A stretch of DNA of 64,000 nt from Alphaproteobacteria bacterium (lineage in GTDB: Bacteria; Pseudomonadota; Alphaproteobacteria; Micavibrionales; UBA2020): positions 68,628-132,627 of the forward strand of contig JAIXUW010000292.1 of NCBI GenBank assembly GCA_027483355.1, written 5' to 3'. The notes below the pieces were generated by a model that did not search any database, was not told the DNA's origin, and saw nothing but the letters and a program-made list of their open reading frames with translations. The position numbers were made by a program, and so were the translations under genes. Position 1 is the stretch's first letter. Each line of letters starts with the position of its first letter. Shown here in pieces: positions 6,693 through 63,333 of this stretch.

Positions 6693-6712
6693 TTTTTTTC
6701 GTTCTTTCCTCT

Positions 6713-6721
6713 GTCTATATA
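6713..6721 (-). promoter_or_regulatory. TATA-like element TATATAGAC, about 20-30 nt upstream of the ATG at 6692
   Basis: The minus strand reads CATATATAGACAGAGGAAAGAACGAAAAAAAA-ATG. The same 9-mer recurs upstream of the gene starting at 27508. Confidence 0.4.
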
Positions 6722-6920
6722 TGCGTGTTTTACAGACAAAGGTTCATGTAATCAAATGTGCGCAAAAAATGCGACTCAATGGCAATTATTTCAAAATAAA
6801 TGGGCGAGCTTGAAGAAATCAAATTACCCAAGCAGTTATTTAAAATTTTGCGCTTGGACGGCTCCATGTAACCAGTACATGATTCACAGATTTACAATTC
6901 AAGCCGGTTGTTTTTGTGCA

Positions 6921-13463: not shown

Positions 13464-13475
13464 ACGATATTTCTT

Positions 13476-20100: not shown

Positions 20101-23100
20101 CAATGCTTGTTTTCTCGTCGGGGCTGTCGCGACGTCTTGTTGCAATAGCAAGCAACATTAGCCGAATCGCAAATGCGACTAGCAACAACGAATTGTCGCC
20201 TTTTATGTTGTTTTGACCCATCACTCTACTAAGAGCGCCCAGCACGCGCTGGCAGTGTTCCGTCACCAAGTTTGATCTTTCAAAATATTCCAGCGTTGGC
20301 GTGGAAGTCAAAATCTCGCGGAAAAGTCCAAAGTGCGTTGGCGTTTTCATGGCCAAGCAGACGCCGTCGCAGAACAAGCGCAGATCTGTTTTAGGAGACA
20401 TTGGCGTTCCCTTTTGCACGACCTTCTCGGCGTCCTCGGTGGAAACAAGTTTTTTCTCCATCATAGAACCGCCCCATCTAGTCTGGGAATTTGACACGAG
20501 CATTCTTGGGGGCACTTGCGATTCCGGGACCAGTGCAAATCCGACTTCCGCTGGTATTTTGTCGAACCAACGACTTTGCACATGTTGAGCGTAGTGAATG
20601 ACCGCCTGAGCGTGTTCTTTGTCGCGTCCTTTCAATTGTTCACCGTTGCCGGATACAAGGGCGATGGAAGCCTGAGTAACAAAGCCGGCGTTTTCAAATC
20701 TGTTCACGGATTCTGTGATCAGTGGAATCATCTCATTCGTAATTTCCAAATGCAATCCAATGAGACCTAGATCGGTAGCAAGATGATTGATAAACCCGAC
20801 AAGTGTAACTGTCCTTTCGTCTATCGTTATCCACTCAGATTCGAGAATTCCTCTAATCTTGTTGTAGAGAGAAAAGAGCGGCCCGGGCTGAAACGTGTTC
20901 TCGACAATATGCAACGCTTTCACAAGTGCCGCAAATGCCATGTACACAGAGCACCAAAATCTTGAAATAAAGTGCGTTTGCATTCTCCAGAGCTCGGTGT
21001 CGACAAAAGCCGCTTTGGCGGATCGCAGCGCCATTTGATAAACACTCAAAATGTCCAATGCACGTTGTATGATACGTTCAAACGTAATCGTCGCCATTGA
21101 AGCGTTGAATTCAATGTAGGATGGCACATGGTATGAATACGGCGCATTGTTGGTTTCGAACAAATGTGTTGCAAAAATATCGGAACTGCTCTTCATCCTG
21201 TACACCATGTACTGTAATTTTGCACAATGTGGAATCATAGAGCGCAGTTCTTCGGGAGCAAGCCGAAGCATTTTTGAGGTTTTTGGGATCTGAACCGCAT
21301 TTGCCAAGTTTTTCACCGTGGCAATCAACGCGTCGACCGTGATCCTATTCTGCGGAAATGCAAGATTGAAATGTGACTTTTGGCTGACAAAAGCCGATTT
21401 TACGAGCCGGTAAATTGTCTTGATGGCAGCACCGGACAAATCCAGGTTCCTTGTGCCCGAAATACTCTGCATTGTAAACGGAGACGGGAATTCCATGGTT
21501 GTGCTAGTGCCAAGCATTTCCTTTCTCAGCCTTTCAGCTCGCTCGGCAACGACGCCGTCGGGCGCAATGCGGACAAAATTATTGTCCAGTGCATCGAACG
21601 AGTTAAGAATATCGTCGGGCTTCAGTCTAGAGTCGTCAAATTTCTTTGCCACGGCGATAATCTCTGTGCCCAAGAACTCTAAAAACACATCAAACTGTTC
21701 ACTTGTTTCAGCACTGTTAAACACAGAGGGCAGCCACGGGAACCGCATTGTGAGGCGGTCTACTTCAAGCGACAGATCCACCATGTCTTGAGTCAAATTC
21801 GGAACAGAGCTCTTCTCAATTTTGTACAACACGGCATTGGCTGCAAAATTTGCATCAACAAATCTCTTGTATCGCTTTGCAAACCAGGCGTGCCAACGGC
21901 TGTTAGGATCACGCAATAGAGACATGAGCAGCCGCGCGAATTTTGTGTTTCCGGGCAGCATGTAACAAGGCAGATATAGACTGGGCAGGTTTCCCTGTCC
22001 AAACTTAATGCCCCACGCCTTTTTCATGGCCTCGAAGAGAATTCGTCCTTCGGACGCTTCCTGTTCAAAGGAAACCTTGTCGCCTTCTTGACTTTTAGTC
22101 TCGCATAACTTGAACAAAAGAACAAACGCGCCAATGGATTCGGCAAGCCAAATATGAAATATAGATTCTTCAGTGGACGGAACTGCAGTTCCATCGGCAA
22201 TTTCCGAAAGGTTCTCAAAATACTGCTTCCATTTGTCATTACCCTGAGAGTTTACCGCAGCGTCGATAACCGCAGAGAACCTCAATCCATACAGCAATTT
22301 TGGCGAAGGGTTGGCAACAGCGGACAAAAATTCACTTGCAGAAAGAGCCAACTCTGATTCTTTAACAGTATCCTCTCCTTGTTTTCTCTGAGTAACAAAC
22401 TCGGCGGCACCATAGGTCTCAAGCTTGGCGCCTTCGATTGTGTTGCACAGTCGTGCCAACAAAGCGCTTGGGTAGATTCCAGTTTGCACTGAAAAGGGAA
22501 ATTCAATCCGCTGCGATTCCTTTTGCACAGCATCCTCGTACGAGGAATTCCTCACGGGAATCATATAGTTTTGAGGCAGACACAATGCCGACCCGGCAAG
22601 TTTACCCAGCGAAAGGCTGCCAAGCGGAAGTTTGCTTCCTTCGTCAACGGCGGTGACTACATGGCGAGTGAATACTTGGCTTGTATCGACGCAAAAGGCT
22701 TCTGTGTAACTGTCCGCTTTCACAAGATTGTCTATAACACGTTCGGGATGCATGTCGACAGCCGCAGCGAGGCTGCGCCCTTGAAGATCAGGGCGGAATT
22801 TTTCGCGCAGAATACCTTTTACGTCGTCGAGATCAATGTCAAAGGAGACTTCTCCGCTTTTCGTATCGTCGTAATTAACGTTCTTGTCGGACACCATATA
22901 GAGAATAGCTTCAATGGTCTCGAATCCGTCATCGTCTTCGTCGTCCTCGCCGTTCTTGTCTCCGTTCTTGTCTCCGCCGCCGCCATTATCATCATCCTCG
23001 TCGCTGTCGGCTAAGAACGAGTCTTCCTCGTTTTCGGAAGATGACGCTTTTTTAGCAGGTACAGCTGCAGGGTTGTCCACATCCATAGCGTCGTCAGACT

Positions 23101-27507: not shown

Positions 27508-28758
27508 ATGTCACTTTTAATCCCGCACGTAGCGCGATCTGTTCCGAGGCGTCTCAATGCCGAAGTCCAAGCTGCCGATATTATCGGAGGCGGTACAGAT
27601 GACCCGTTGCTAGCAGGATTCGAAGCCGAAGAAGAGGCACAGCAGCAGCAGCCGGAGCCTGAACCCGTCACCGTGCCGATTCCCGAATCCTACCAGTCAA
27701 AAGTAACGCGGCAATATATTCAAAAACAGATTGAACTCGAAGGCGGATCGCGTGTATTTGCTTCAAGCCGAAAACCGCCGCCTAAACGCGTGGCAACAGT
27801 TGACCCTTCTGGAATTCCGGCCGCTAAGCGCCGCAAAACGCCAGACAATGTACTTTTAGATGGAACCGACGACGATTTCGACATGAACGGCGGGTTTGGT
27901 GCAGGCCTCGAGCAAACAGACTCTTTGTTTTCGCGGTTCACAAAGCGTGGCCGTGACGCGTTGAATGAGAGAAACGAGGAGCTCGATAATGACATGAGCA
28001 ATGAAGACAAAAACGGAGAAGCCGTGGAAGCGTTATTCAAACAGTGGGCGAGTCGCAATCAAAATGGTCAAGGTGATCTGCCCAACGCAGAACCGAATCT
28101 GTTTCCTCACGACGATGACGACAATGATGATCACCAACACTCGTCTCATCCATTTGAAGAGTGCTTTTTCTGCGTATACGAAGGCAAAGCGGTCCCACCG
28201 GATATTCTGGTGCACTACAAGACAATGCTGTCGTTTTTTGACGAGAAGATAGCGTCAATGCCAGCGTACAAGCTAGCAGAAGCAATCTACAAATACTACG
28301 AGTCGTTTGTCAGGCCCGCGCTGGCCGCTTCGGTTCCTGCAAAATTTCACCAGCGATTGTGCCCAAAAATGTCAGTCGAAATAGTCTACTCTCATATTAT
28401 GATATGCACTCGGGACCCGCGCGTGTTCCAAGCCATGGTGATTGACATGAGCAAGCGTTTAACGTTTAGACTCATGCAGAATTGCGAGACGATGTTAGTG
28501 GCCGATTTTATGAACCGCCACAATGGAAATCCGGCCGTGGCGCTGGACAAGAAAATGCTGACACTTGCAGAGAGATGGATCAGAATCACGGTGTTTCTGT
28601 ACAAATTAGACCCAAGAAAATGCGCTTTTTACAACCCATACAAAGAAAGGCCCATAACGTCCATGGCGTCTCTGGGTCTAATGCCCGTGTATGATCTAAC
28701 GCATGATTTGAAGGAAAAAGATGAAGACAACGACGAATCTCAAGCAAAGCAAAAATAG
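27508..28758 (+). CDS. Hypothetical protein (416 aa): acidic/basic N-terminal half with an NLS-like AAKRRK, and a Cys/His-containing C-terminal domain
   Basis: ATG start in the context ACACAAA-ATG. Motifs: EEEAQQQQPEPEP, PPPKRV, AAKRRK and HPFEECFFCVYEG...HIMIC. Function unknown. Confidence 0.8.
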   Translation: MSLLIPHVARSVPRRLNAEVQAADIIGGGTDDPLLAGFEAEEEAQQQQPEPEPVTVPIPESYQSKVTRQYIQKQIELEGGSRVFASSRKPPPKRVATVDPSGIPAAKRRKTPDNVLLDGTDDDFDMNGGFGAGLEQTDSLFSRFTKRGRDALNERNEELDNDMSNEDKNGEAVEALFKQWASRNQNGQGDLPNAEPNLFPHDDDDNDDHQHSSHPFEECFFCVYEGKAVPPDILVHYKTMLSFFDEKIASMPAYKLAEAIYKYYESFVRPALAASVPAKFHQRLCPKMSVEIVYSHIMICTRDPRVFQAMVIDMSKRLTFRLMQNCETMLVADFMNRHNGNPAVALDKKMLTLAERWIRITVFLYKLDPRKCAFYNPYKERPITSMASLGLMPVYDLTHDLKEKDEDNDESQAKQK

Positions 28759-28815: not shown

Positions 28816-30765
28816 TTATTTATTGCCATAAAACCTTTGTAAAGTTCTCGTGTTGACTTGCACGTCGGCGGGGTGAGGTACCTTTGCAAAACTGATATTC
28901 TCAAATTTCCTTGCTCGCGATGCGGCCACGTAGAGCGAGTGATTTCCAAAACATTGACCATTTCCTTCGTTTTGAACATGCACGTTGTTCAATGTCATTC
29001 CTTGCGCTCTATGAACGGTGATAGCGTAGCCTAAGTAGAAGGGCCACTGCACTCGACAGGCAACTTCTTTCGCTTCAGGCACTTTCTTGACCGGGTTGTA
29101 CTTGAACTCGTAGCATGAAAACTTCTGAGGGTAGACAAGAACAGGGATATCCAAATGTTCAAATTTGACAAGCACGCAAGTGCAATTATCTAGACCTCGA
29201 TGCGGAGACTTGGGCGCGACAGCGCATGGCGCAAACAAATCCGAAACCCGATCGCCAGGCTTTTCCTCCCAGTGTTCGGAACATATGCTCAGAAATGACG
29301 ACCAGCCCGAAGACGAGCCATCGGCGTCATGCACGTTGACACGGCAGTGAAGATCAGCATTCTTGCTGCTTGCTCTATTTTCTGCGGCGTAATTCATCAA
29401 ATCAACCAGATCGGCGACTTTAGCTCCGCCACCAAAGTTGAAAACGTAGTTGGATAAAGATGCGCCGGAGTAGTCCGTTGTTTGAAACGTCAAAATGGCC
29501 TGTACAATTCCGCGCGCGCCCTTGACGATTCCACTGTTGACACAAATGTTGTGAATCAAAATCACAGATGCTCCCACGCACAAATCGACAGAATTGGGGA
29601 GAGCGTCGGCCAGGTCGGAAGCGTAGGCTTGGAGCATATACTTCTCTTGAGGCGGGCCCAGAGGGCTGAAATCACACGCAAGTTGATTCGCCAACTTGAA
29701 ATTGCGTTTTTGAGACACGATTCCGTACAGAACACCGTTGATATGCGACGCGAGATCGTTTTGCCCAACGAGCATGACGGGCGCGTCCTTTGGGCTGACT
29801 TTAGCCCTATCTAACACTTTGTCTAATGCGTTGACTTTGATGAGCTCGGAAAACTTGCCCGGGTCCAGGCCTCCAACACGCATAGAGGAGAGAAAATCCT
29901 GAAATCTCTCGTCGTCCTTGGCTCTTTGATTCTGTTCCAACGAGAGCACATGAGGCGCGAAGAGGGCCCATAGTTCGGATTCCCAGCAACATTGGGCTGG
30001 CGCCGTCGGCCGAGACACGGGCTCGAGTTGAAGTGGGTCGCCCACAAGGACGATGGTTGGGAACGAGTTTTTCCACGCCGAGCCCATTTGGGCGAAATTA
30101 CGCAAGAGAGGCATCCAAAAGCTGCCGTTCAGAAAATACTTGTCTTCCGCAGGTTTGGAATCGTATTTGTTCATATTGGACGAGTAGGTCGTTTGTCTAG
30201 ACCCAGAAGAAGCACTTGCCTTGGCGTGATATTCACGCAGAGCGGTTCTGACCTCGGGAAAGTAGTCCCGTGGATCCGTTCTTTTCCAAAACGCGATGCA
30301 GCACATGATAAACCGTGCCATAAAACGATCGAATAGCTCCGCGCTCATCATGCTGATCTCGTCTATCACAACGTACTTTAACTTGCCGCGCAGAGAGAAC
30401 CAAGGTTCAAGCCGTTCGTTGCACGTGGCTTGAAATCGCTTTTTGTTATCGTAACAAATACCTTCTATCCATTTAGAATCAGCGTCCATTAAACAGAACG
30501 CGCGATGAATCGTACAAGCGCGGTGTTCGGAGAAATTAGACGCGGCTTGATTTGTTGTCGCCGTAATCATGACCTCGCCCTCGCTATGATTTTTCAACAA
30601 GTGCTTGACAAGATGAGATTTTCCGGAGCCTCCAGGAGCCGCGAGAAAGTACACAGGAGACACGCGGCTTGTAATGGCATTGTACGCTGCAGCCTGTTCA
30701 CTTGAAAGTGGGCTGGCCTCAGAGACAGCCATTTCTTCGTCAGAGTCGTAAATAACAATGGCCAT
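28816..30765 (-). CDS. PIF1/RecD-like SF1 helicase (649 aa)
   Basis: The motifs appear in order: Walker A AAPGGSGKSH (30616-30642), Walker B VVIDEISMM, GDPLQLEPV, LEQNQRAKDD..F, VGASVILIHN...VKGARGIV, ITVHRAQGMTL and LYVAASRAR. The first ATG is at 30765 (MAIVIYDSDEE); the track start is TTG. Confidence 0.85.
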   Translation of the reverse strand: MAIVIYDSDEEMAVSEASPLSSEQAAAYNAITSRVSPVYFLAAPGGSGKSHLVKHLLKNHSEGEVMITATTNQAASNFSEHRACTIHRAFCLMDADSKWIEGICYDNKKRFQATCNERLEPWFSLRGKLKYVVIDEISMMSAELFDRFMARFIMCCIAFWKRTDPRDYFPEVRTALREYHAKASASSGSRQTTYSSNMNKYDSKPAEDKYFLNGSFWMPLLRNFAQMGSAWKNSFPTIVLVGDPLQLEPVSRPTAPAQCCWESELWALFAPHVLSLEQNQRAKDDERFQDFLSSMRVGGLDPGKFSELIKVNALDKVLDRAKVSPKDAPVMLVGQNDLASHINGVLYGIVSQKRNFKLANQLACDFSPLGPPQEKYMLQAYASDLADALPNSVDLCVGASVILIHNICVNSGIVKGARGIVQAILTFQTTDYSGASLSNYVFNFGGGAKVADLVDLMNYAAENRASSKNADLHCRVNVHDADGSSSGWSSFLSICSEHWEEKPGDRVSDLFAPCAVAPKSPHRGLDNCTCVLVKFEHLDIPVLVYPQKFSCYEFKYNPVKKVPEAKEVACRVQWPFYLGYAITVHRAQGMTLNNVHVQNEGNGQCFGNHSLYVAASRARKFENISFAKVPHPADVQVNTRTLQRFYGNK

Positions 30766-36152: not shown

Positions 36153-36557
36153 ATGGCTAACAATTGCCAAGAAACAACAGAAAATGCTGTTGAGTTGACG
36201 GAATCCGATGAAATAGAAAAATACGTGCAAGAAATTATAGACAAATTCCCGCCAACCATGGGGCCTGGTTATGAAACACCCATTCATTTGAGTCAGCTAA
36301 ACTTTAAGCTGAAACACTTGGACAAAATACAGGACAGCCTACAGGCTAAAGGAATTTGGATGCGCCCTTACTGGGACTACAAAGACAATTTAATGGGATA
36401 CGATTTTGGATACGAAGTAGCCGTCGACGATTCCCTATGGAGTGGCGCGCGACCAATTAGCACTTCTCGGCAGGTGTTTTTACTTGGTTGTATCGTAGCG
36501 GTATTAATATACATGTATCAACGGTGTCTCGTGTCTACATTAAACCAAAATGAGTAA
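36153..36557 (+). CDS. Tail-anchored small protein (134 aa), paralogue 1
   Basis: C-terminal TM segment (VFLLGCIVAVLIYMY). It shares the core KGIWMRPYWDYKDN..GYDFGY with the next gene (RGVWTKPYFKYNGKRIGHTFRF). Confidence 0.6.
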   Translation: MANNCQETTENAVELTESDEIEKYVQEIIDKFPPTMGPGYETPIHLSQLNFKLKHLDKIQDSLQAKGIWMRPYWDYKDNLMGYDFGYEVAVDDSLWSGARPISTSRQVFLLGCIVAVLIYMYQRCLVSTLNQNE

Positions 36558-36630: not shown

Positions 36631-37050
36631 ATGACTGAAGTCAGAAAAAAGTGGGAGCAATCTCACTCTGTGTTTAAAACAGAACAAATGCAGGAAATTG
36701 TGAAAATAGCTGACGCCGTCGTGGAAAAGGTTCCTCCCGGCGACTCCGAAGAGCCTGAAATTATGTTGACTGACATGGAGTTGGAACTGAAATACAAGAG
36801 CGCGCCCCTTTTGGAAGCTGAACTTTATCGCAGAGGCGTCTGGACGAAACCGTACTTTAAGTACAACGGGAAACGCATCGGTCACACCTTTCGATTTCAA
36901 GGCGTCCCAAGTTCCGATGCATGGTCTACATTTACGCATTTTATTGCACACAAATTCTGGCAAAACCCTGCAGATTTTGTTCTCACCATTCTTCTCTGCG
37001 TTGTCTGTATCGGATTTGTTGCATTGGCGTACACGGCCTCGAGAAAGTAA
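36631..37050 (+). CDS. Tail-anchored small protein (139 aa), paralogue 2
   Basis: ATG start and a C-terminal TM segment (FVLTILLCVVCIGFVALAY). The sequence resembles the 36153..36557 product. Confidence 0.6.
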   Translation: MTEVRKKWEQSHSVFKTEQMQEIVKIADAVVEKVPPGDSEEPEIMLTDMELELKYKSAPLLEAELYRRGVWTKPYFKYNGKRIGHTFRFQGVPSSDAWSTFTHFIAHKFWQNPADFVLTILLCVVCIGFVALAYTASRK

Positions 37051-45413: not shown

Positions 45414-46832
45414 ATGCGCCTTGCTCCTGAAGCAAGAAGCCGGTTATTTAGTCCGGATGATTCTGCACACGTGAAGAAAATGGAGATCAGCAACCTTCTC
45501 CCGTGCGAGTACGAAGCGTTTTGCAATGTTCTTCGCGGCCGCAACTCTACATTCGCAGGCTCGGATCCTTCTTACAATAATATTATTGAGACGTTAGTGT
45601 TTACCGATTTCAACGACCCTGCTCTCTTCCAATACGCGATGCAGCACATGAAAATGGCCGAGTTTTCGTCCTCCGTGTCCTACATCATTTTCAGGGATGC
45701 CACGTTTTTGAATATGAATAAGAAGACTGGCGAGGATCTAGCCGTGTTTTTGCATCAATTCCCGTGTTTGAAGCACGTGGAGTTCGACGACTCGATCGAC
45801 TTGCGCCCCATTCGGTTCCGAGTCGACCAATTCAACATGGACGAATGTGTCATTCAGTTCTGGATTGGTTGCTTCACGCGTATGTTTCTTCCCAACGTAA
45901 GCGTGTTGATATTGGACAGTCCAAAGTCGTATTTGGACGGACGCGTCGCGGCTGCCATTCTGACCATGTTCAAGAGCTCGTTCCTGCCTTCACTCACCAC
46001 GTTGACGTTCATATGGGCGCGAGAGCTTATTTTCCGCTCCGCGATGCAGCACACGCCGATGGCGCCTGCGTCCTCTACGTTCAAGGAGGCCACGGTCGCG
46101 ACCCAATTTGCCAGCACGATTTCCGCGTTTTGGAGCGAATTGTTTCAATGTACGCCTCGGCTTTACGAGCTTGAGATCGCGTCTTGGATGGACAAGTCTC
46201 AACCTGGCTCGTCGGACTGTGAGTCTACATGCGAGCTGCGGTTCCAAGCACTGCGCGTGTCGCCTACTGCGGGCAAGATTCCTTTGTTCATTTACAAGCT
46301 TTGTTTTGGAATTTCGACTCTGTACAATGCTGGTCAGGACGACGATCTTGACAGTGCTTCATTGCGCCCGGACGAGAAAAAAATGGCGCTTGGCCGCATC
46401 AAGTACAAGGATTTCACTGATGTCTGCTCCGAATTTCGCGTTGAACTTTGCGTTTCCTCTTTCAGCCGATGCTTCCATTTGTATTCGCCGATTCACGAAT
46501 CGAGCCCGGTTATGCCTTCTCAACTAGCCGTTGCGTTTCAGCACACTCTGAGTGAACCGGTTGCGTCTTGGTCTGACCAGGCATGTCAGAACGTTGCGGC
46601 TCGACTCAACGAAATGGTGCCCCAAAGAACGACGTCTCGTTGTGAATCTGTTCTTTTCCAGTGGCCCGCGTCAATGGAGTTTGCCGAGTTCCACGACGCC
46701 GGACAAGGGTTCTACTGCACTGATGTGTGGAGAGGATGTGATATAAGTGACTGCGACTCTGGCTGCGATTGCGGCTGCGAAAGCGAGATTGAGGGCGGGA
46801 ATGAACAAAATGAAGACGTGATGCAAGTGTAA
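45414..46832 (+). CDS. Hypothetical protein (472 aa; alternative start at 45480) with LRR-like repeats and an acidic Cys-rich C-terminus
   Basis: The track start at 45333 is TTG. ATGs lie at 45414 and at 45480 (context GAAGAAA-ATG). It has repeated LxxLxL-type segments (FPCLKHVEFDDSIDL, LPNVSVLILDSP, LPSLTTLTFIW, TPRLYELEIASW) and the tail CDISDCDSGCDCGCESE. Confidence 0.7.
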   Translation: MRLAPEARSRLFSPDDSAHVKKMEISNLLPCEYEAFCNVLRGRNSTFAGSDPSYNNIIETLVFTDFNDPALFQYAMQHMKMAEFSSSVSYIIFRDATFLNMNKKTGEDLAVFLHQFPCLKHVEFDDSIDLRPIRFRVDQFNMDECVIQFWIGCFTRMFLPNVSVLILDSPKSYLDGRVAAAILTMFKSSFLPSLTTLTFIWARELIFRSAMQHTPMAPASSTFKEATVATQFASTISAFWSELFQCTPRLYELEIASWMDKSQPGSSDCESTCELRFQALRVSPTAGKIPLFIYKLCFGISTLYNAGQDDDLDSASLRPDEKKMALGRIKYKDFTDVCSEFRVELCVSSFSRCFHLYSPIHESSPVMPSQLAVAFQHTLSEPVASWSDQACQNVAARLNEMVPQRTTSRCESVLFQWPASMEFAEFHDAGQGFYCTDVWRGCDISDCDSGCDCGCESEIEGGNEQNEDVMQV

Positions 46833-51643: not shown

Positions 51644-52032
51644 TTTCACACACGTTTTGAATTTCAAACAAAAGAATGGTGCACCCGGTGCTGAGCCCAC
51701 AAAAAAAGTCGCCGACCAGCCTGCGCTGTTCAAAAGTGCGCGGGTGCCACTGGGAAATTGGTTGTGGTTGGGCGGGGAAGAAGCCGCGAAGATGGTTTGT
51801 TAATCTTAGAAGTGAATCAAGGTTGGTCTCTCCCCTTGCGAAATATAGATTAAATTCGTAAAGATGGGCTGTAAGAAAGAGCGCTATGGTGCGGTGTCGA
51901 CAGGTGTTGTTCTATCTAATTATCGTATCGCGGTACATGCGCCCAGGCCTAGATCGCCGACCGCCACAACCTTTTTTACGCACTCACTCACTCGCTCACT
52001 CACGCACTCACTCAGAAGCATTTGACTTTTTT

Positions 52033-52068: not shown

Positions 52069-53397
52069 TCACCAATCCTCTTCCGGTACTAGTTCATGCG
52101 CCGGAGCCACTTGCCTTATAAAATCCTCGTCCAACCACTCGAGCTTGAATGACTTGTGACATAGCGTATATTCTCCATTCTCTGCTAGTGTGGGAGCGTG
52201 TCGAAACACGATTTTTGTCTTTTGAGCCCACAGAGGCCCCGAAAAAGTACCGTCTTCCGCTCTCTTGACTCCGGCTGAAACTTGGCAGTACTGTCCTTTT
52301 GCATCCGTCGTACTAATCGAAAATTGTGTCGGGTTGCCAATACCACATGTGATATCAAATCGCGCGCCGATGTGTCCGGCTGGAACGTTCCACGTATCGC
52401 ATGTATTCTGGCCCGAAAATGCCCATTGTCGATTATCCGTGTATTTTTTCTTTTTCTCTGTCTTTTCAAAGACGAATTTGGACGGAACGGGCGCGAAATG
52501 AACAAGTTGTCGCAGATAATCAAACTTCCATTCGGCCTCGATGTCTTCTAACGTCCCATCGTCCAATATAGTTTTGTACAACGGCTTCCACAAACCCATG
52601 TCGGAATCTCCATTTGGTTGCATAGCAACGGCAAGGAAGAGCCACGTAAGTGCGTTGCGATGTCGCGCCGCAGAGTCGGTTTTGATATTGTCGTCCGTCA
52701 AACAGCTCCACTGGTTATAATTCCAAAACACGGTTTGAAGGTCTTCCCAGACACATTCATAGATCTTCTCGGTGTCGGGTCCTGACATTATCACTCGGAA
52801 TTGCTCTATATCTTCCTCCGATTCAGGGTCCATAAACCGAAAAACCCGCGACATGCTCCACCGATTAGGCTTCACTTTCATGGCAGTTTTGACCAAATTG
52901 CTAATGTCCATACCCAAGAGGTAGAGAAACAGTTCACCGGATGGTCTGTCGACGCAGTCATATTCTCCAAATATTGCGTCGCTTGTTTGCCAAAATTCCT
53001 TTTTTTCGGAAACAGTGAGAGGGTTCACGTTCTCGTAGATACGCTCGAGGACGGTGATCCACGATTCCAAAGTCCATCCGGCCTTTCTGTAATCGAAATA
53101 TACGGCGGAATTGTCGTTTGACGACCACGCGCCTTGTAAGCGCGATTTAAACACGGGTAGAATGCTCAATATCAGGGCGTGTGCCGGCACCAAAACAGAG
53201 TCGGCGTCTTCGTTCTCGATTCTTACGGCGTCCGCCTCCGAATCGTCTCGCTCGTACACGATAATGTAGACGTCGGTTCTAAACGTCTTCCAAGGCACGT
53301 TTTTTGCGATTCGTGTAACCGCGGGCACGTTGGGTTTGTGCCGCTTTGCCGCTGGCGGTTCTAACTCGGCATCTTGCGCGACAACGAGCTGCGCCAT
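52069..53397 (-). CDS. BTB/POZ-like protein, paralogue 1 (442 aa)
   Basis: ATG start. NLS-like AAKRHK, then DVYIIV...VLVPAHALILSILPVFKSRLQGAW...WITVLERIY, which fits the BTB pattern (D-V-x-hydrophobic..aH..vL...S.yF). It is collinear with the two genes upstream. Confidence 0.8.
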   Translation of the reverse strand: MAQLVVAQDAELEPPAAKRHKPNVPAVTRIAKNVPWKTFRTDVYIIVYERDDSEADAVRIENEDADSVLVPAHALILSILPVFKSRLQGAWSSNDNSAVYFDYRKAGWTLESWITVLERIYENVNPLTVSEKKEFWQTSDAIFGEYDCVDRPSGELFLYLLGMDISNLVKTAMKVKPNRWSMSRVFRFMDPESEEDIEQFRVIMSGPDTEKIYECVWEDLQTVFWNYNQWSCLTDDNIKTDSAARHRNALTWLFLAVAMQPNGDSDMGLWKPLYKTILDDGTLEDIEAEWKFDYLRQLVHFAPVPSKFVFEKTEKKKKYTDNRQWAFSGQNTCDTWNVPAGHIGARFDITCGIGNPTQFSISTTDAKGQYCQVSAGVKRAEDGTFSGPLWAQKTKIVFRHAPTLAENGEYTLCHKSFKLEWLDEDFIRQVAPAHELVPEEDW

Positions 53398-53540
53398 GCT
53401 CCGCTTGTGACTATATTAATTCTATTCCAAAGCGCGATTGTTGCTTCAAAGCGCCGGTGCTCTGGTCTACGAATAGGAAAAATGAGAAGGGGAAAGTGCG
53501 GGCGTGCAGGGGATGTATCACGAAAAGACACCAAAATCCA

Positions 53541-53546
53541 TTTATT
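53541..53546 (-). terminator. AATAAA hexamer overlapping the TAA stop of the 53542..54789 gene
   Basis: The minus strand reads GTTGAATAAATGG. This is an inference. Confidence 0.35.
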
Positions 53547-54789
53547 CAACCCACTTTAAACGCAACGAATGACACACGATGATAAAATGAGGCATTCCAC
53601 TGCGATATACCCGTAGCGGTTCACGAACACAAGGTTCCAGCATCTGACTCCATAAAGGAGCTTTTTTTACGCCAGACTCGGTTTCTTTCTCGTCAACGGT
53701 CCACTTAATTCCACCCGAGTAGAAATCGTAAGCACCTGCCTGAGTAATGCGCGAGACGCCGAGAATGTTCTCTTTAAACGCAAACTCTCTCTTTTTCAGG
53801 CCTCTTCCGGCAAGGGCCAAAATAGAATGCGAAGTCTGGTCTTTCAATAAAAGAAAGTCGCGCCCTGCGACTGAATACGAAGACTTATCCTCGTTGCCCG
53901 ATAGATGCTGAAAACACGGCAGAAACAGCGCTAGCAACGCGTAATATTCCACATTGCTCTTCCCGTCGTGTTTGCCATAAAGGCAAGAAAACCCGCCTCT
54001 ATCGCAGCTATTAATAACCGCCTCCGACGTCTCGCAATCCATGTTACTACACGCGACTAGAAGAAAAAGCCATGTAAACACGCGGTACACGTGTTCCAAA
54101 TTCACCACCGGAAGAATATCGTCGCGTGGTGTGCACAGGGGCTCTAGGCAATTCGATATTCCGCCTATCATCATCTTATCAAACTTGTCCACGCGCGTCA
54201 ACATATCCTTGAATGTTAACATGTCTTCTCTTGAATCGTGAGAATAGTTGTTCACAAAGACGGGTATCAAGATGTCTCTAGCGACACACTTGTCCAACTC
54301 GCCGACAAGGGAAGGAAAATCGGTTGCCAGCAGGAACAGGAATAAATCGTGCTCGGATCTAAATGGAACCGAGGACTCGTAAAACGAGATTATAAACCGT
54401 TCTCTGGCCTTAGTTCTATCGACGCCAGCAGACAGTGGATTAAATCGACATGCGCGGCGTATCACGCCCGTCCAAACGGAGGCATCCCATTCGCAATCGG
54501 AGAAATCAAAATGAACATCTCGTGTAGAAATAGCCCAACTTCCGTCGAGCACCGCGGCGCATGTAGGAAAGTGCGCCATGAGCACTGCGTGAACCGGCAA
54601 GCGAATGAGCTCGGGATCGTCTGATGTTTCTTCGCTAATCTTCGTTGGCACGACAATGTAGCAATCGGCCTTGTATGTGACCCAAGGCGCGTTATCTAAC
54701 ACGGGGACGGCGTCAAAGGCGTTTTCAAACCGCTGGCGCTTCGGGGCGCTTTCCGTGACCACCGCATCCGCGCTTGCAACAGTGTCCAT
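53542..54789 (-). CDS. BTB/POZ-like protein, paralogue 2 (415 aa)
   Basis: First ATG at 54789 (MDTVASADAV); the track start is TTG. It contains APKRQRF, then DCYIVV...IRLPVHAVLMAHFPTCAAVLDGSW...WTGVIRRAC. Confidence 0.8.
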   Translation of the reverse strand: MDTVASADAVVTESAPKRQRFENAFDAVPVLDNAPWVTYKADCYIVVPTKISEETSDDPELIRLPVHAVLMAHFPTCAAVLDGSWAISTRDVHFDFSDCEWDASVWTGVIRRACRFNPLSAGVDRTKARERFIISFYESSVPFRSEHDLFLFLLATDFPSLVGELDKCVARDILIPVFVNNYSHDSREDMLTFKDMLTRVDKFDKMMIGGISNCLEPLCTPRDDILPVVNLEHVYRVFTWLFLLVACSNMDCETSEAVINSCDRGGFSCLYGKHDGKSNVEYYALLALFLPCFQHLSGNEDKSSYSVAGRDFLLLKDQTSHSILALAGRGLKKREFAFKENILGVSRITQAGAYDFYSGGIKWTVDEKETESGVKKAPLWSQMLEPCVREPLRVYRSGMPHFIIVCHSLRLKWVE

Positions 54790-54894
54790 TTTTGTGAGAT
54801 TCGTGAGTATACAATGAAATGCGTGCTTTGTATAGCGTGTCAGATACAATAAATTGGGTTAAACCGTGAACCCATGTGCGTTTTTTGGTACTGG

Positions 54895-54912
54895 AAAATT
54901 GCGCGCAATTTT
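54895..54912. repeat. Perfect 18-bp palindrome AAAATTGCGCGCAATTTT in an intergenic gap
   Basis: Read directly. It lies between the start of paralogue 2 and the stop of paralogue 3 and contains GCGCAA on both strands. Confidence 0.8.
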
Positions 54913-55017
54913 GCACACTTACCCAAATTGGACCAATCGACGCTGGCTCACTGGAAATACCACAGCAAAGAAATATACATTAGTACATCAATACATGCCT
55001 AATACACGTTGATGAGA

Positions 55018-56292
55018 TTACACAAACACGAGCGAGTATGAGTTACAATAAACCATGTACTCTGGCATAGCGGAGATTTTCAACCCTCTAGTGTATCTAT
55101 GCTGCACTTTGAACACTTGAAAAATGGGCAAATTTTTGGTAGACCCAAAAGGCCACACCACATTGCTCTCAGTTGTAGGTCTCGCTGATCTTAAGCAACA
55201 GGGGCCTTCAAACACAACGTCTTCCAAAACAAATGTCCAAAATTCGTGAGGTGCGTCGGGGATGACCACGTGAGATGGAGACCCGGCGTAGATGGCACTT
55301 TCGGCCTCCAGCATTTTGTGTTTTAACTCTGCGGCGTTGGAGTCGGATCGGAGAAAATGGGAGCAGCACGGTTTGAAACACCACATTGCCATGTTCAAAT
55401 CCTGCAGTTGCTTTGATTGAAACTTTGAAGCCACTTCCTTGTCAAATCGCTCCATAAATGTCTTGACAGCGCTGTGATCACTGGGCGCCAACCCGCACAA
55501 AATTAGCAACCAGCGGATCAAATTCATCATGGGTGGCAGAATTTCCACATCCTCGGGCCCTGATCCTCCAGAGCCGAATTGTTTCATGTAGTGTTCCGAT
55601 TTTTCCGTGCATGCCAGAACAAAGCACTTCAAGAGATAATACACTTCTTGAGTCGCAACAGCGGCGTCGTATATTCTTTTGAATGACTGCAGCGACTCCA
55701 AGTCCAACGCAGAGTGAGTTTCGACAAAGGCGGAAGCGACAGCGGTCAGGGCCTGAGAACCACCCACCTTGATGCATTTGAGCACCATGCTTGGAATATC
55801 CTCGCCCAAAAGGTACGCAAACAAGGCCATTTCGCAAGGAGGACCGTCGTCATCATCAAACGTCCAATCAAACTGCTGAAAAAGGTCTTCAGCGTCGGTG
55901 AAGAACGGGTTGATTTTGTACACTCGCTGCAGACATGCGATCCAAGTGCTCGTGGAATGCTCGAGACCACTGCAGTCAATGTTATTGTTGTCGTTGTCGT
56001 TTTTAGACGCTCCAGACGCAGAAGCCCAACTTCCAGTAAGGCGGCGTTGAAAAAACGGTAAAATCGCGAGTTGCACACGGTGCACCGGGATCCGCTCCAG
56101 CGTCTTGATTCCTTCTTCCGAAATTGCAGATGGAGCAACGATGAACAAGTCGGACATATAAGTGGACCAAGGAACAAATTCGACCACGGGAAGGGACGCA
56201 AACGCCTCCTCGTCCTGGCGTTTGGCTCGCTTGGCAGCAGAAGCAACCTCGGCGGACGGCGCGGGTGCGTCAGATGTTATAACGGAATCCAT
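55018..56292 (-). CDS. BTB/POZ-like protein, paralogue 3 (424 aa)
   Basis: First ATG at 56292 (MDSVITSDAPAP). It contains AAKRAKRQ, then DLFIVAP...ERIPVHRVQLAILPFFQRRLTGSW...WIACLQRVY. Confidence 0.8.
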   Translation of the reverse strand: MDSVITSDAPAPSAEVASAAKRAKRQDEEAFASLPVVEFVPWSTYMSDLFIVAPSAISEEGIKTLERIPVHRVQLAILPFFQRRLTGSWASASGASKNDNDNNNIDCSGLEHSTSTWIACLQRVYKINPFFTDAEDLFQQFDWTFDDDDGPPCEMALFAYLLGEDIPSMVLKCIKVGGSQALTAVASAFVETHSALDLESLQSFKRIYDAAVATQEVYYLLKCFVLACTEKSEHYMKQFGSGGSGPEDVEILPPMMNLIRWLLILCGLAPSDHSAVKTFMERFDKEVASKFQSKQLQDLNMAMWCFKPCCSHFLRSDSNAAELKHKMLEAESAIYAGSPSHVVIPDAPHEFWTFVLEDVVFEGPCCLRSARPTTESNVVWPFGSTKNLPIFQVFKVQHRYTRGLKISAMPEYMVYCNSYSLVFV

Positions 56293-56701
56293 GATTGAGT
56301 AGATGCTGTTCGAATATGCACTACCAAGAATGAATGGAATTTGTGTACGCGGCCCGAACAGCGCAGCGCGGATTTTTTTTTGCTCGGGGTGGGGAGACAC
56401 AGCGGCGTTTTTATTCTCCGCACACACGCGCGCGAAAAAAACAGTTTGCTTTCACTCCCTCGAGTTTGAATTTGAATTTAGACTGTTACAAGTTTTATAC
56501 AAACAGATTGTGCGTGTGTTTTTATAAATGTTACGATAAAATACGTTTGATTTGGCGTCGGCGCGATTTTTGTGCGCTCGCCGGGCAAAAGAAAAATTTG
56601 TAGCGGCTTTCCTCGCGCTCTTTTCTATTCGGAAAAATTCACACTAGATTCCCTATTCTAATCCCTGTTCATTTCTCAGTATCGTGAGAAAATCTAGCCC
56701 C

Positions 56702-58339
56702 ATGTCCGCGCCTTTTACTTTGTACGACCTCCCGGACGAACTACTCACCAACCACATCATCCAACATTTGGATTTCACAAGCCGTCGCTGTCTAACATGC
56801 GCAGGCAAACGCGGTCGCGACATGGTGGTTGCTACACGCGGCGTGATTCATCGACCCGGAGCATGGGGCGCTTCTGCCTCTCCTCCTCTTCCCAACAATC
56901 TTTGGGTATTTTACGAGGCATGCACACGTACCTATGCCTTTGCATGCACCAACAGCTGCGAGCCTATCCTGCGTTACAAAATGGGCTGGCTGACCGTGCC
57001 CTTTGTTGGCTCCAGGCAAGTTCTCCGCGCCTTTGACTGGATGTCTCTTCGCGTGGGATTCGCGTTTTTGGCATCCCCTCGCGATTTTGCGAGCGTGGTA
57101 TGGTGTTACATTAGGAAAGATTCGCGAAAGCATTGTCTCGGATTGCAGGATTTGCTCCACCGCCAAGTGCCGCAGGTCAACGACGACGTTGTTGACATTA
57201 CTCCTGCGCTCAGATATTTCGAAGCCGTTTGCGGTTATATGGCGAAATCGGAGAAGGATTTGTTTAGGATTTTTGCGCTATTGTTCAAGCGCCGCCTTTC
57301 GACATTTGAAGAGGCCTGGGACACGGTCGGCCGTGACGCGCCTGACGGAAATCAGGACGAGTGGCTTACAAAGAAATGCATTAGATTGGAGCTTAATGCA
57401 ATGTGCCACGCTTGGTCGTATCTCCAAATTCTTTGCGCGACTCTTCGCGAGAGGACCATTTCTTCTTCTTCTGCGGATGCCGAAGCCACTGATATGACTG
57501 CCGCAATTCGACTGCGAAGTTTTTACAACGAACTGCCTTGGCAGCATTATAGCGACAGCGACGACATTGTGGAGAATACCATAGCCTGGCCTGGATGCAC
57601 TTTTCAGGATGTTTCTCAGTTTTATTCGGAGACGGCTCAAGTCAACACCGCCTACTCAAAGTGCAAGGATGAGATGACGGAGTGCATTTTTAAGCTTGTT
57701 GCCCCATGCGAATCGAAAGACGCCCGACTTCTAGCTGGTGATCGGGGTCAGACCGTTTACGGATCAGAACCTGCAAATGCTTTGCTCTACATCTCAGCGG
57801 CTGTGCGCTATTACGCATTGGACCCCTGTATGAGCGAATATGACGAGAAGTTTCGTGTCTCCATTCACCGCGCTGTGAAACGCGATCTGCTCGTTTCTAC
57901 TGAACTTCCCGCGCACATCACAGCGCAGATGAATCGAACAATGTTTGTGCCTCTCCCATTTCACTTTAAGAGCGAATTCGATGCAGCCACGGCGAACGTG
58001 GACAAGTACGTTGCTTATTTTGCTTCATGCAACGGACATTTTCAGTTTTGGGACCCGGCATTGGTGGATGCCTCTATCAACGCGGGCAACATTCCTTATC
58101 TGTCTCGCAAAGAAACCATCTTGTTGATTCGGAGAATGGGCAGACGTACGTTGGGTCTCGTGTCTGACGCCGACGAATTCTTCCCTTTGGATCCCGAGCG
58201 CGATGACGATGACTATTGGGGACATGGCACGACCTTAAATTGGAACCTGATGCTACTTGATGGCACTGTGGTAGAAGAATTGTGCAAGCGAAACCCTGTT
58301 CAGGTGGGGTGGATTCATAACACACGCGTTTGGCGCTAG
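56702..58339 (+). CDS. F-box protein (545 aa)
   Basis: First ATG at 56702. The N-terminus MSAPFTLYDLPDELLTNHIIQHLDFTSRRCLTCAGKRGRDMV fits the F-box consensus (LPdEll..I...L......l..vck.w). I do not recognise the C-terminal 500 aa. Confidence 0.8.
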   Translation: MSAPFTLYDLPDELLTNHIIQHLDFTSRRCLTCAGKRGRDMVVATRGVIHRPGAWGASASPPLPNNLWVFYEACTRTYAFACTNSCEPILRYKMGWLTVPFVGSRQVLRAFDWMSLRVGFAFLASPRDFASVVWCYIRKDSRKHCLGLQDLLHRQVPQVNDDVVDITPALRYFEAVCGYMAKSEKDLFRIFALLFKRRLSTFEEAWDTVGRDAPDGNQDEWLTKKCIRLELNAMCHAWSYLQILCATLRERTISSSSADAEATDMTAAIRLRSFYNELPWQHYSDSDDIVENTIAWPGCTFQDVSQFYSETAQVNTAYSKCKDEMTECIFKLVAPCESKDARLLAGDRGQTVYGSEPANALLYISAAVRYYALDPCMSEYDEKFRVSIHRAVKRDLLVSTELPAHITAQMNRTMFVPLPFHFKSEFDAATANVDKYVAYFASCNGHFQFWDPALVDASINAGNIPYLSRKETILLIRRMGRRTLGLVSDADEFFPLDPERDDDDYWGHGTTLNWNLMLLDGTVVEELCKRNPVQVGWIHNTRVWR

Positions 58340-61125: not shown

Positions 61126-63333
61126 CTATTTACGCGGCACGAACTCGGGCGGTAGTCGATCTGCTAATAGCTGTGGCTGTGGGCGATAGTCTTGTATCCT
61201 CTGCAGCAATTCTCTTAGCAGTCTCGCAGACGATTTCGCAGACACTAGCGTTTCAATTGGTCCGCTTCCAGTTTCCTTTCGAACGACGAGAATAAATTTG
61301 GCTACGAATTCCGCAAACAGAGACTTGAATCCAGTATCGGGCATTGTAATCGTCGGCATCGGGTCAAAATACTGCCAGTTCATATCAAACCCACGCACGG
61401 AGGTTTTCATGTGCGAAGTTGCGGTTTGAATCGCGGCTTGCACGACTGGAGAAAATCTAAACGTGCCACTCATGACCGGGTCAACACGACGTGCTACTTG
61501 AGCTATGATTGCCTTTTTTGCGGCTTCCTGAGAAATATAATCCTTGATTTGGGGCAGTGAAAAGATTTGCTGCCTGGTTTCGTCAATCTGCATGCGATTT
61601 TGCTCGACTTTTTTCACAGAGGCTGCTTGGATGGGTTCCATGAGCATAGCGACAACTTCGTGTACGAATTGATACATCAAAACGTTGACAATGACCGCGA
61701 AGCGCAGATCAAAGTAAATGTTTATACGATATTCGGCTACAAAATTGTAGAGCATGCACGCTAATGAAAGCAGAATTTCCGCTTTACTCAGTCTCGCGGG
61801 GTCGTTGAATAGAAACCCAATATTTGTACTTGCAAAGTTAGGTATGTCGCGAATTAGCCCAAGAGCTTCACGCGGCTCTCCGAGTTTCACGAGGCATTCT
61901 TGTATTTTTACTTGCAATTCATTGGTGTCGCTGTGTCGAGACAGTTGGTGCAAAATATGCGCGCACTTTTTGAACACGTCGGATAATGCAGTTTCCTTTT
62001 CCAAATACACTGCCAAATTAGAGATGGCAGTTTTGAGGGGCGTCAAGTCCTCTATCTTCTGCAATTCGGGTTGCACAAATTTCAACAATCCTGTAGCAAC
62101 CTCGGCCTTTCTTTTGCTTGCTTCGGCGCTGTTTGAACCTTTGTATTTATACTTGACCGCAGACAGCGCGGTTCGCGCCAACTCGTCGGCCGTGTCCGCA
62201 ATCTGACCGGCGCGGAAATTTACAAATGGAACACGGTCGCCATCGGAGTCAATACTTGATTCTGTATACGGGGTGTATTCTAGTGTCACCGTAGAATCGC
62301 CTTTGTAAGGAACGCTCAGAGTAAATAGGTTGACATATTTGGAAAGGCTTGCCAGTGCCTCGTTGGATGCAAAATCTGGCGCAGTGGCTTCGGTTTTAAT
62401 CGTTTCCCATATATCGCCCAAAATCGATGTGTATGCGTCGTTTGCGTTTCCAAGACCAGTGCCAGGCGCAAACGCCGACTTGATGGACTCAAGTTTAGAA
62501 CTTGCCAGGTATCTGTCGAGTGCTCCATTCGGACCTAAAATTTGCACTTTTGCGCGATAATGCCCCTGTGCCGACTGGAGGGTGAGTCCGTTGCCAATCT
62601 TTCTCACCAGGTCATCGATTTTTTGTATAAACTGAGGCCCTGAAAAGGACTTGATAGGTGGCATGACAAGATTGACAGCTTGTCCAATTTCGCTGACGAT
62701 AGCGTTTAGCGCGGTTTGATTCATCGCCAAGAGACTATCGGATTGTTTAGCCACGGGTATAAAATTTTTGAGATCTTTTAGAAAATCGCGCATGAAATCC
62801 GAAAATTGGTTTTTGACAATGGTCGTGTAGTCGGATCTCAGCAACAAGTCGGTTGTTTGAACTTGCAAATTGCCTTGAATGCCAATCAAGAATTGGTATG
62901 TCGGATCGGCTAATAGCAAAGCCAGACGAGCGTCAAGAAGTTCAAACACTTCGTCGCTAAATGCTTTTTGTATACGCGCTGTGTCTGTTTCTTTACTCGT
63001 GGCATTTTCTACGAATCGATTGTAAATCCGAAGATCCTTTGCGTCCGTCGGCACCGCGTTCACCCATTCGGCTTTAAACCTGTCGCCGGCTTCAGCCGAC
63101 GCTCTATCCACAGCATATCCGTCTACTGTTGGAACAAGATACTTGGCCGCGCCTGTAGCAAGCGTTGGCACGACGAATGGCTTTGAAAAGTCAGCTTCTC
63201 TTGCCGCGGCTATGTGATCGTCCGAATCACTCTGTTCTATCTTCTGCCTCTTGGGCGCTCTAATTTCGTCAACGTAAGCGCTTGATTCGGGTACCGCTCC
63301 GCTGCGATACCAAGGAACGTTTGAAGCGGACAT
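61126..63333 (-). CDS. Large hypothetical protein (735 aa) with an N-terminal NLS-like APKRQK
   Basis: ATG start (MSASNVPWYRSGAV) and an uninterrupted ORF. No motif recognised. Confidence 0.85.
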   Translation of the reverse strand: MSASNVPWYRSGAVPESSAYVDEIRAPKRQKIEQSDSDDHIAAAREADFSKPFVVPTLATGAAKYLVPTVDGYAVDRASAEAGDRFKAEWVNAVPTDAKDLRIYNRFVENATSKETDTARIQKAFSDEVFELLDARLALLLADPTYQFLIGIQGNLQVQTTDLLLRSDYTTIVKNQFSDFMRDFLKDLKNFIPVAKQSDSLLAMNQTALNAIVSEIGQAVNLVMPPIKSFSGPQFIQKIDDLVRKIGNGLTLQSAQGHYRAKVQILGPNGALDRYLASSKLESIKSAFAPGTGLGNANDAYTSILGDIWETIKTEATAPDFASNEALASLSKYVNLFTLSVPYKGDSTVTLEYTPYTESSIDSDGDRVPFVNFRAGQIADTADELARTALSAVKYKYKGSNSAEASKRKAEVATGLLKFVQPELQKIEDLTPLKTAISNLAVYLEKETALSDVFKKCAHILHQLSRHSDTNELQVKIQECLVKLGEPREALGLIRDIPNFASTNIGFLFNDPARLSKAEILLSLACMLYNFVAEYRINIYFDLRFAVIVNVLMYQFVHEVVAMLMEPIQAASVKKVEQNRMQIDETRQQIFSLPQIKDYISQEAAKKAIIAQVARRVDPVMSGTFRFSPVVQAAIQTATSHMKTSVRGFDMNWQYFDPMPTITMPDTGFKSLFAEFVAKFILVVRKETGSGPIETLVSAKSSARLLRELLQRIQDYRPQPQLLADRLPPEFVPRK

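Follow-up and report, generated by a model that had tools for sequence, protein, structure and literature searches.

The 64,000-nucleotide stretch analysed here (contig JAIXUW010000292.1 of assembly GCA_027483355.1, positions 68,628 to 132,627, deposited as Alphaproteobacteria bacterium; hereafter the window) carries three collinear genes which are true paralogues, next to a divergently transcribed gene whose product starts with an F-box-like helix (Table 1). The N-terminal domain of the three paralogous proteins probably has the BTB fold, and the proteins belong to a family found on other large contigs of viral appearance, on some of which it again lies beside F-box-like genes. The explanation that best accounts for the locus as a whole, which we put forward tentatively, is a set of nuclear ubiquitin-ligase adaptors encoded beside an F-box-like adaptor. 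An earlier note on this DNA, made from the sequence alone, had read the locus as a cluster of ligase substrate adaptors; its observation was confirmed and its interpretation supported in part, as the BTB-like fold gained support, the F-box stayed below the profile threshold and a leucine-rich repeat (LRR) protein proposed for the same theme gained no support.

Three old tandem paralogues and their family

The three minus-strand genes encode proteins of 442, 415 and 424 amino acids (aa), and the coordinates and motifs given for them in the earlier note were confirmed. All three products follow the same layout: a basic KRxK motif, a BTB-like domain, a helical middle and a variable, beta-rich C-terminus. 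The motif A(A/P)KRx(K/R) occurs as AAKRHK, APKRQR and AAKRAK, D-x-(Y/F)-I-(I/V)-(V/A) occurs as DVYIIV, DCYIVV and DLFIVA, and each of the three proteins contains both P(A/V)Hx(L/V) and G(A/S)W. Pairwise BLASTP e-values were 1e-17 (paralogues 1 and 2), 1e-17 (1 and 3) and 2e-21 (2 and 3) at 23–31% identity, with end-to-end alignment in one pair. The N-termini of paralogues 2 and 3 are alike (MD(T/S)V..(S)DA), which supports their ATG starts. Comparison of the three genes showed no DNA-level repeat left between them, so the duplications are old, and at a protein identity of 23–31% synonymous sites are saturated. Identity amongst the three is 31% in the BTB-like part vs. 17–19% in the remainder, descriptively in line with the fast-diverging tandem family that had been suggested. 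In a neighbour-joining tree the three cluster together (trio bootstrap <50), a grouping that fits duplication inside this lineage. A six-frame hidden Markov model (HMM) scan of the window found no further, degenerate paralogue, and no common upstream promoter motif of the three genes was seen by eye. A short (CACT)n / ACGCACTCACTC microsatellite lies in intergenic DNA at 51978–52014, just 3′ of the stop codon that ends paralogue 1 (442 aa).

An exhaustive HMM search over 1.84 billion representative proteins delimited a family of 12 clusters, the three window proteins and nine relatives (P0116–P0124), with e-values from 2.6e-23 to 9.6e-6. Every member is 389–491 aa long, aligns over its full length and has the same architecture; columns invariant in the 12-member alignment include K17 and R18 (of KRxK), W36, H67 (of ‘PVH’), D95 and W106. 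The relatives lie on gene-dense, nearly unannotated, ORFan-dense contigs (ORFans being orphan open-reading frames, ORFs) from metagenomes and sequencing runs, amongst them contigs of 131 kb (SRR28892712), 133 kb (ERZ4109989, an Arctic Tara co-assembly) and, for those with P0116, 0.2–1 Mb. The BTB-like family is the only gene common to the window and these related loci at the BLAST level, and it appears restricted to viruses. A word-based homology search returned self-matches only, for the paralogues and for the product of the divergent neighbour alike, scans of IMG/VR and JGI metagenomes with alignment A1 found no relatives, and the phage collection gave no match. On one related contig (L002), the minus-strand gene 1400–2527 encodes a 375-aa protein with an N-terminal PKRTR followed by DVTFDV…VVHGSRVDLELF and a C-terminal part that is LRR-like by eye; the family HMM does not detect it, yet judged by its sequence it could be a BTB-like protein of even greater divergence.

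A strongly diverged BTB-like domain

Similarity to BTB domains was observed by profile–profile alignment against seven BTB reference sequences, checked against the Pfam BTB model PF00651 (E 1e-23 to 1e-34). With hhalign the 12-sequence, full-length family scored 39.5 against these references (P 6.6e-5), and the N-terminal domain (alignment A4) scored 38.1 (Prob 82.5, P 9.9e-6), with the β1 aspartate on its BTB counterpart, (P)xH(R) on AH(K/R), FPxF on SPxF and W..VL...Y on f..LL.f.Y. The controls were clean: reversed profiles scored 11.7 and 12.9, and 100 column shuffles 11.7±2.0 (maximum 19.5), placing the match at z ~14. As a calibration with equally small profiles, BTB/POZ vs. Skp1 plus ElonginC scored 38.3, matching the level of the viral family vs. 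BTB/POZ, whilst the family itself scored 15.9 vs. Skp1, 18.4 vs. Skp1 plus ElonginC and 8.5 vs. KCTD5. On isolated N-terminal fragments PF00651 gave sub-threshold matches in two of the 12 members (best E 0.036), and it was the only Pfam family matched by more than one member fragment. PDB sequences yielded nothing relevant when searched with the profile of the paralogues, with the N-terminal one or with the protein of the divergent neighbour.

An AlphaFold2 (AF2) model of paralogue 2, computed with the 12-sequence alignment, had a mean predicted local distance difference test score (pLDDT) of 65 and a predicted template modelling score of 0.67, with residues ~22–220 at pLDDT 80–95; with the three paralogues alone the model was unusable (pLDDT 38). 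Its elements are strands at 43–48 and 61–66, helices at 68–71 and 75–84, a strand at 92–95 and a helix at 103–113, then an inserted helix at 125–137 and helices at 144–153 and 158–164. This order, β-β-α-α-β-α, an extra helix between α3 and α4, and, at the ‘LF.YLL..D…L’ segment, two helices, then helices alone up to ~296, fits the BTB topology as far as the model can be trusted. With the full-length model as the Foldseek query, the high-probability matches in the PDB were BTB domains (ZBTB8A, BCL6 and KEAP1), with ZBTB8A matched at probability 0.98 over 72 columns (root-mean-square deviation 2.0 Å, E 0.4), and in BFVD 10 of the 50 top matches were named BTB (E 0.07–0.6; camelpox, Megavirus, Orpheovirus, Pandoravirus and others), so that, of the named families, BTB came up most often in the weak matches to the two databases. 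The helices that follow the BTB-like domain (167–296 in the model) had no Pfam BACK match and gave noisy ARM and 14-3-3 matches in Foldseek. The claim of a BTB domain therefore stands at the level of fold or superfamily, on the hhalign comparison with its controls, the AF2 topology and the recurrent weak Foldseek matches, and did not pass the Pfam HMM check that the earlier note had proposed.

An F-box-like gene beside the paralogues, and its recurrence

The product of the divergent neighbour (545 aa) begins MSAPFTLYDLPDELLTNHIIQHL, with LPDELL at residues 10–15. In the six frames of the 64-kb window the pattern LP[DE][DE][LI][LIF] occurs once, at this LPDELL, and the expectation from shuffled ORFs is 0.033 occurrences at any position and 0.003 in the first 30 residues. 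A custom 10-sequence F-box HMM scored the N-terminal fragment at 6.5 bits, a value reached by none of 2000 shuffles, and in a ranking of 102 ORFs, taken from the window and the related loci, by the F-box HMM score of their first 80 residues, this gene came 4th, behind F-box-like genes of two related contigs (L003 and L011). Judged from its sequence the F-box-like helix is real and non-random; that the N-terminus works as a functional F-box is possible, though we hold it in some doubt. The protein is a singleton ORFan whose only database match is itself (P0125), and at full length it had no Pfam or PDB sequence match, with LRR, WD40 and Kelch domains likewise undetected by Pfam.

The top-ranked N-termini in this comparison, for which all loci had been selected for a BTB-like gene and thus offer no unbiased background, were those of genes adjoining BTB-like genes. 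L003 (Logan SRR22746113) carries the BTB-like gene P0118 (5053–6300) and then two F-box-like genes within 8 kb. The first (7303–8709, plus strand) encodes a 468-aa protein which matched PF00646 at 20.7 bits as a 70-aa fragment, just above the cutoff, and at 16.8 bits in full, and which has obvious LRRs, its weak PDB matches all being LRR proteins (FBXL-like); the second (12679–14079, minus strand) starts MDDFPDEILCNIFS…RRVCRRF and matched PF12937 at E 1e-4. A GIY-YIG/zf-CCHC gene is also present on L003. L011, a 72-kb contig (Logan SRR18313612), is a much larger version of the window arrangement: five paralogous genes (341–384 aa, 29–57% identical) at 135–7575 have two BTB-like paralogues, 47% identical to each other, interspersed among them, and the head-to-head pairing of a BTB-like with an F-box-like gene seen in the window recurs twice. 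All five begin ..LPEDILAIILS..STC..MR.L, and as a family they matched PF00646 at E 0.006 over profile positions 2–39 of 43 and scored 22.2 against F-box references with hhalign (P 4e-4) vs. 9.3±1.9 for shuffles. No F-box-like neighbour was found in the related loci L002, L007, L009 and L010. BTB-like and F-box-like genes thus lie side by side in three independent genomes, which raises the hypothesis that these viruses redirect host cullin-RING ligases.

The suggestion that an LRR-like protein at 45414–46832 belongs to the same theme was not supported, as this protein had no Pfam match and no PDB sequence match at E ≤ 5, and resembled neither the F-box-LRR protein of L003 nor the other F-box-like proteins.

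Possible ligase adaptors and alternative readings

In the explanation that we propose, the three genes are old tandem duplicates from a small family which was found only on ORFan-dense contigs resembling uncharacterised large DNA viruses of aquatic microbial eukaryotes. The KRxK near the N-terminus, invariant in the family, is most simply read as a classical monopartite nuclear localisation signal, which would direct putative nuclear import; behind it would come a domain of the BTB/POZ fold, strongly diverged and with an additional helix inserted between α3 and α4, then an all-helical middle and a poorly conserved β-rich C-terminus. The paralogues would act as nuclear adaptors, the BTB-like module serving putative oligomerisation and docking on a partner from the host, for which a cullin-RING ligase is the most plausible candidate, as with poxvirus A55 and EVM150, and the variable C-terminal half would select the target, leading to putative degradation of host factors. 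The divergent neighbour, with its F-box-like N-terminal helix, may be a second ligase adaptor, of the Skp1–cullin–F-box (SCF) type; both Cul3 and Skp1 binding are putative. That the two gene types cluster repeatedly in related genomes suggests a neighbourhood for manipulating the host, organised around ubiquitin-ligase adaptors. The adaptor reading is favoured by the conserved N-terminal module (31% vs. 17–19% identity), by the F-box-like genes in the surroundings and by poxvirus precedent, as A55 and EVM150 bind Cul3 via their BTB domains (PMC6484134, PMC3185573). The (A/P)KRx(K/R) motif is also found at residue 106 of the product of 27508–28758 on the plus strand (PAAKRRKTP) and at residue 27 of that of 61126–63333 on the minus strand (RAPKRQKIE), suggesting nuclear proteins and a common nuclear-import signal in this genome.

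A number of results tell against this explanation, beginning with the fold. Pfam BTB (PF00651) was not matched at E ≤ 1 by any of the 12 full-length members, leaving the three window proteins and nine relatives all below threshold; the family HMM found no BTB chain by sequence in the PDB, and Foldseek found no match at E ≤ 1e-3 in the PDB or BFVD. The alignable part covers ~60–70 columns, from β1 to α3 only, the equivalence of α4–α5 being our reading of the alignment, and the model was built on 12 sequences and is unreliable in its C-terminal third (pLDDT <50). As to the neighbour, described in the earlier note as a textbook F-box, its LPDELL helix-1 signature stood, whilst a 60-aa N-terminal fragment scored 11.6 bits against a PF00646 cutoff of 20.5 (E 0.28, profile positions 2–24 of 43), and the 156-aa fragment and full-length protein did not match PF00646. 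The 6.5 bits of the custom HMM lie inside the noise of a six-frame scan of the window, in which a spurious 59-aa segment scored 7.1. Helix 1 is one residue longer than the canonical LPxEILxxIFxxL, which shifts the hydrophobic register, and helix 2/3 reads CLTCAGKRGRDMV, with Gly at the conserved Trp/Phe of the ‘CKRW’ segment (AGKRGRDM). The F-box-like proteins of the several loci have no homology to each other beyond the N-terminal motif, although a likeness limited to the N-terminus is as expected of a modular adaptor motif.

A first alternative is that the BTB likeness is convergent or spurious, that the proteins have a fold of their own and an unrelated function, and that the ‘F-box’ is a chance LPDELL. 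Each single method is weak, with no Pfam threshold match, Foldseek e-values of at least 0.03, hhalign probabilities of 64–82%, P values of 0.002–0.16 for the family profile against single BTBs, a shallow AF2 alignment of 12 sequences and an F-box HMM score of the window gene that does not rise above six-frame noise. We nevertheless consider a spurious match improbable: independent methods agree on the same ~70 residues and on the same family, the reversal and shuffle controls lie far lower (z ~14), the score is as high as between families accepted to have the BTB fold, an LPDELL this close to an N-terminus has an expectation of 0.003, and the relatives have better F-box matches.

The results on a possible Cul3 role also speak against the adaptor explanation, and they bear on a second alternative. 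The φ-X-(D/E) motif that contacts Cul3, located after the SPxF helix (definition from PMC6484134), is not conserved: in the hhalign register the φ position is hydrophobic, with Trp in nine of the 12 members, yet D or E at φ+2 is found in none (I/S/S/S/R/N/A/A…), the alignment of this loop being uncertain. BACK, Kelch and MATH domains were undetected in the family by Pfam, as was any Pfam domain in the C-terminal half of the three window proteins and nine relatives. The closest structural neighbours are ZBTB-type domains (ZBTB8A, BCL6), not those of KLHL or SPOP, and ZBTB-type BTB domains are dimerisation modules of nuclear regulators.

A BTB fold that has no link to ubiquitin ligases, and through which nuclear viral proteins only oligomerise or bind a partner in the manner of ZBTB transcription factors, would account for these structural matches, for the absent φ-X-(D/E), for the invariant KRxK and for the failure of Pfam to detect a known substrate-binding domain; possible roles include regulation of viral or host transcription or of chromatin, and organisation of replication compartments. 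Many BTB proteins are not thought to bind Cul3, amongst them C2 and F3, vaccinia proteins of the BTB-Kelch type, for which such binding has been argued to be unlikely (PMC6484134). A DNA-binding or chromatin domain was, however, likewise undetected, the recurrent clustering with F-box-like genes suits the ligase theme better, and the conserved N-terminus with a variable C-terminus is the pattern typical of adaptors. In view of the points on both sides, including the argument about C2 and F3 (PMC6484134), we regard a nuclear scaffold of this kind as somewhat unlikely and a ligase-adaptor role of the BTB-like paralogues as plausible but tentative, so that the Cul3-adaptor claim of the earlier note keeps its plausibility whilst the conserved contact motif and the Kelch, MATH and BACK domains were not found.

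Since Skp1 and ElonginC have the BTB fold, the family could also be read as virus-encoded, Skp1- or ElonginC-like bridging subunits which pair with the adjacent F-box-like proteins in SCF-like modules, a co-evolving, two-component ligase-adaptor system of this virus group that is independent of the host Skp1/BTB repertoire. The two gene types co-cluster and co-expand, and they are paired head-to-head in the window and at two places in L011; a Skp1 homologue is encoded by chloroviruses. We consider this highly improbable, as the family profile matches BTB/POZ (38.1) far above Skp1 (15.9) or Skp1 plus ElonginC (18.4), Pfam detected no counterpart of the C-terminal F-box-binding helices of Skp1 (PF01466), and the proteins, at ~420 aa, have a large extra C-terminal part.

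Genomic setting of the locus

The window has a guanine–cytosine content of ~47–48%, contains no tRNA genes and is tightly packed with long ORFs, nearly all of them ORFans. Amongst 36 window ORFs, Pfam matched only a Pif1-like helicase (28816–30765), one PKD domain and a weak DOT1-like domain, and no hallmark gene of the nucleocytoplasmic large DNA viruses (NCLDV) was detected within the window. In the protein database two of the paralogues (P0001 and P0002) and the helicase (P0003) are placed on one NCBI contig of 292,368 bp. The most economical reading, which we infer from the ATG-start genes, the motifs resembling nuclear localisation signals and the genes for F-box/LRR, homeodomain and dual-specificity phosphatase proteins on the related contigs, is that the genome would be that of a large DNA virus or episome of an aquatic eukaryote. 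The homeodomain protein (Homeobox_KN; L009, 415–1077), a eukaryote-type transcription factor on a viral-looking contig, lies ~4 kb from the BTB-like gene P0121, and on both the ERZ4109989 contig and L007 (12547–13635) the BTB-like gene is followed, a few kb downstream, by a dual-specificity phosphatase gene (PF00782 DSPc), for which no counterpart was found in the window.

Of the enzymes in the window, only the Pif1-like superfamily 1 helicase (minus strand; AAA_30 at E 2e-13, with a weak C-terminal Herpes_Helicase match) can be assigned clearly. The closest relatives of the helicase are ~25–32% identical with partial coverage, its distant Pif1 relatives include a fungal one, and an identical copy is present on a 3.5-kb Logan contig of run SRR16126875. 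Two giant minus-strand ORFs, one at 1–6692 (at least 2230 aa, running past the window start) and one at 17117–24319 (2400 aa), have no Pfam domain save a sub-threshold ‘ALF’ repeat match in the 2400-aa protein; ORFs of 2095–2501 aa also lie near the BTB-like gene in related contigs, and one of these is highly repetitive (L002, 6929–11464). A second paralogous pair, 6756–9731 and 10869–13463 (both plus strand; BLASTP 1e-19), includes an 864-aa member that has a PKD domain (PF00801, E 6.7e-6) and what looks like a signal peptide, and judging by these features the pair may encode surface or envelope glycoproteins. A third, small tandem pair at 36153–36557 and 36631–37050 (both plus strand; 134 and 139 aa, BLASTP 5e-9) has no known domain.

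Table 1. Positions in the window of the three paralogues, the divergent F-box-like gene and their parts
Feature	Position	Strand	Description and basis
Paralogue 1	52069-53397	-	442 aa; ORF; database copy P0001 identical
Paralogue 2	53542-54789	-	415 aa from ATG; ORF; protein chosen for modelling
Paralogue 3	55018-56292	-	424 aa from ATG; database call P0002 is 469 aa, from an upstream GTG
BTB-like domain of paralogue 1 (residues ~29-180)	52858-53313	-	Row of alignment A4
BTB-like domain of paralogue 2 (residues ~29-175)	54265-54705	-	Residues 31-116 lie in register with the BTB profile in hhalign
BTB-like domain of paralogue 3 (residues ~35-181)	55750-56190	-	Row of alignment A4
Divergent intergenic spacer between paralogue 3 and F-box-like gene	56293-56701	.	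409 bp; sequence reading; presumed bidirectional promoter region
F-box-like gene	56702-58339	+	545 aa from ATG; ORF start 56684 in the earlier list is a GTG
F-box-like motif (residues 7-41), LYDLPDELLTNHIIQHLDFTSRRCLTCAGKRGRDM	56720-56824	+	Sub-threshold PF00646 match

Comparison with known systems and significance

The nearest functional parallel is found in the poxviruses, which encode both BTB-Kelch adaptors for Cul3 and ankyrin/F-box adaptors for Cul1 (PMC3185573, PMC6484134). The BTB-BACK-Kelch proteins of this group (vaccinia A55, ectromelia EVM150 and EVM167; PMC6484134, PMC3185573) resemble the window family in being multi-copy, diverged viral BTB proteins of ~400–560 aa with an N-terminal BTB domain and a C-terminal target-binding part, encoded by viruses that also have F-box-type adaptors, and a camelpox Kelch-BTB protein was the 2nd-ranked BFVD match of the paralogue 2 model. 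The window family differs in having no detectable Kelch, 3-box/BACK or φ-X-(D/E), in being too diverged for the Pfam BTB model and in its invariant N-terminal KRxK; furthermore, poxviruses have their F-box (PRANC) on the C-terminal side of ankyrin repeats, whereas the F-box-like motif of the window is N-terminal.

The BTB/POZ families of giant viruses (Megavirus/Mimiviridae, Pandoravirus, Orpheovirus, Marseillevirus and Klosneuvirus) are likewise expanded, fast-diverging families of large DNA viruses of protists, often encoded beside F-box, ankyrin or LRR families, and they contributed nine of the 50 top BFVD matches. In contrast to the window family they are recognised by Pfam/UniProt, no sequence-level relationship between the two was found, and the window, unlike the giant viruses, shows no detectable NCLDV hallmark. 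With the ZBTB-type BTB domains (ZBTB8A, BCL6 and PLZF), nuclear proteins that gave the best structural matches, the family shares the signature D…(A/V)H(K/R)…L(A)..(S/F)P.F…Y in register; it lacks their zinc fingers, has the extra α3–α4 helix and is ~11% identical in the aligned columns. The 545-aa protein resembles F-box proteins of the FBXL type (Skp2, TIR1) in its N-terminal LPDELL…I..L helix, the core of which is identical to the LPDELL of Skp2, and the L003 relative combines an F-box match with LRRs, whereas LRRs were undetected in the window protein. Skp1 and ElonginC share the BTB-superfamily fold and a functional tie to F-box or BC-box proteins, yet their profile similarity to the family is weak (P 0.03–0.08), and the window family has no Skp1 C-terminal domain.

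The concept of viral BTB and F-box adaptors is already known from the poxviruses (PMC3185573, PMC6484134), and BTB families are annotated in many giant viruses. What is new here is a family of sequences which Pfam does not recognise, which has an architecture of its own with an invariant KRxK, is confined to unplaced, ORFan-rich, large viral contigs and is repeatedly associated with F-box-like genes in physical proximity. If the BTB reading is true, the viral BTB repertoire would gain a family that standard annotation misses, as no member has a Pfam domain, with an unreported architecture of KRxK, BTB-like domain, helical region and novel C-terminal domain. The family is one of very few genes common to mutually unrecognisable, ORFan-rich viral contigs from marine and other aquatic sources, and it could serve as a marker of that contig group.

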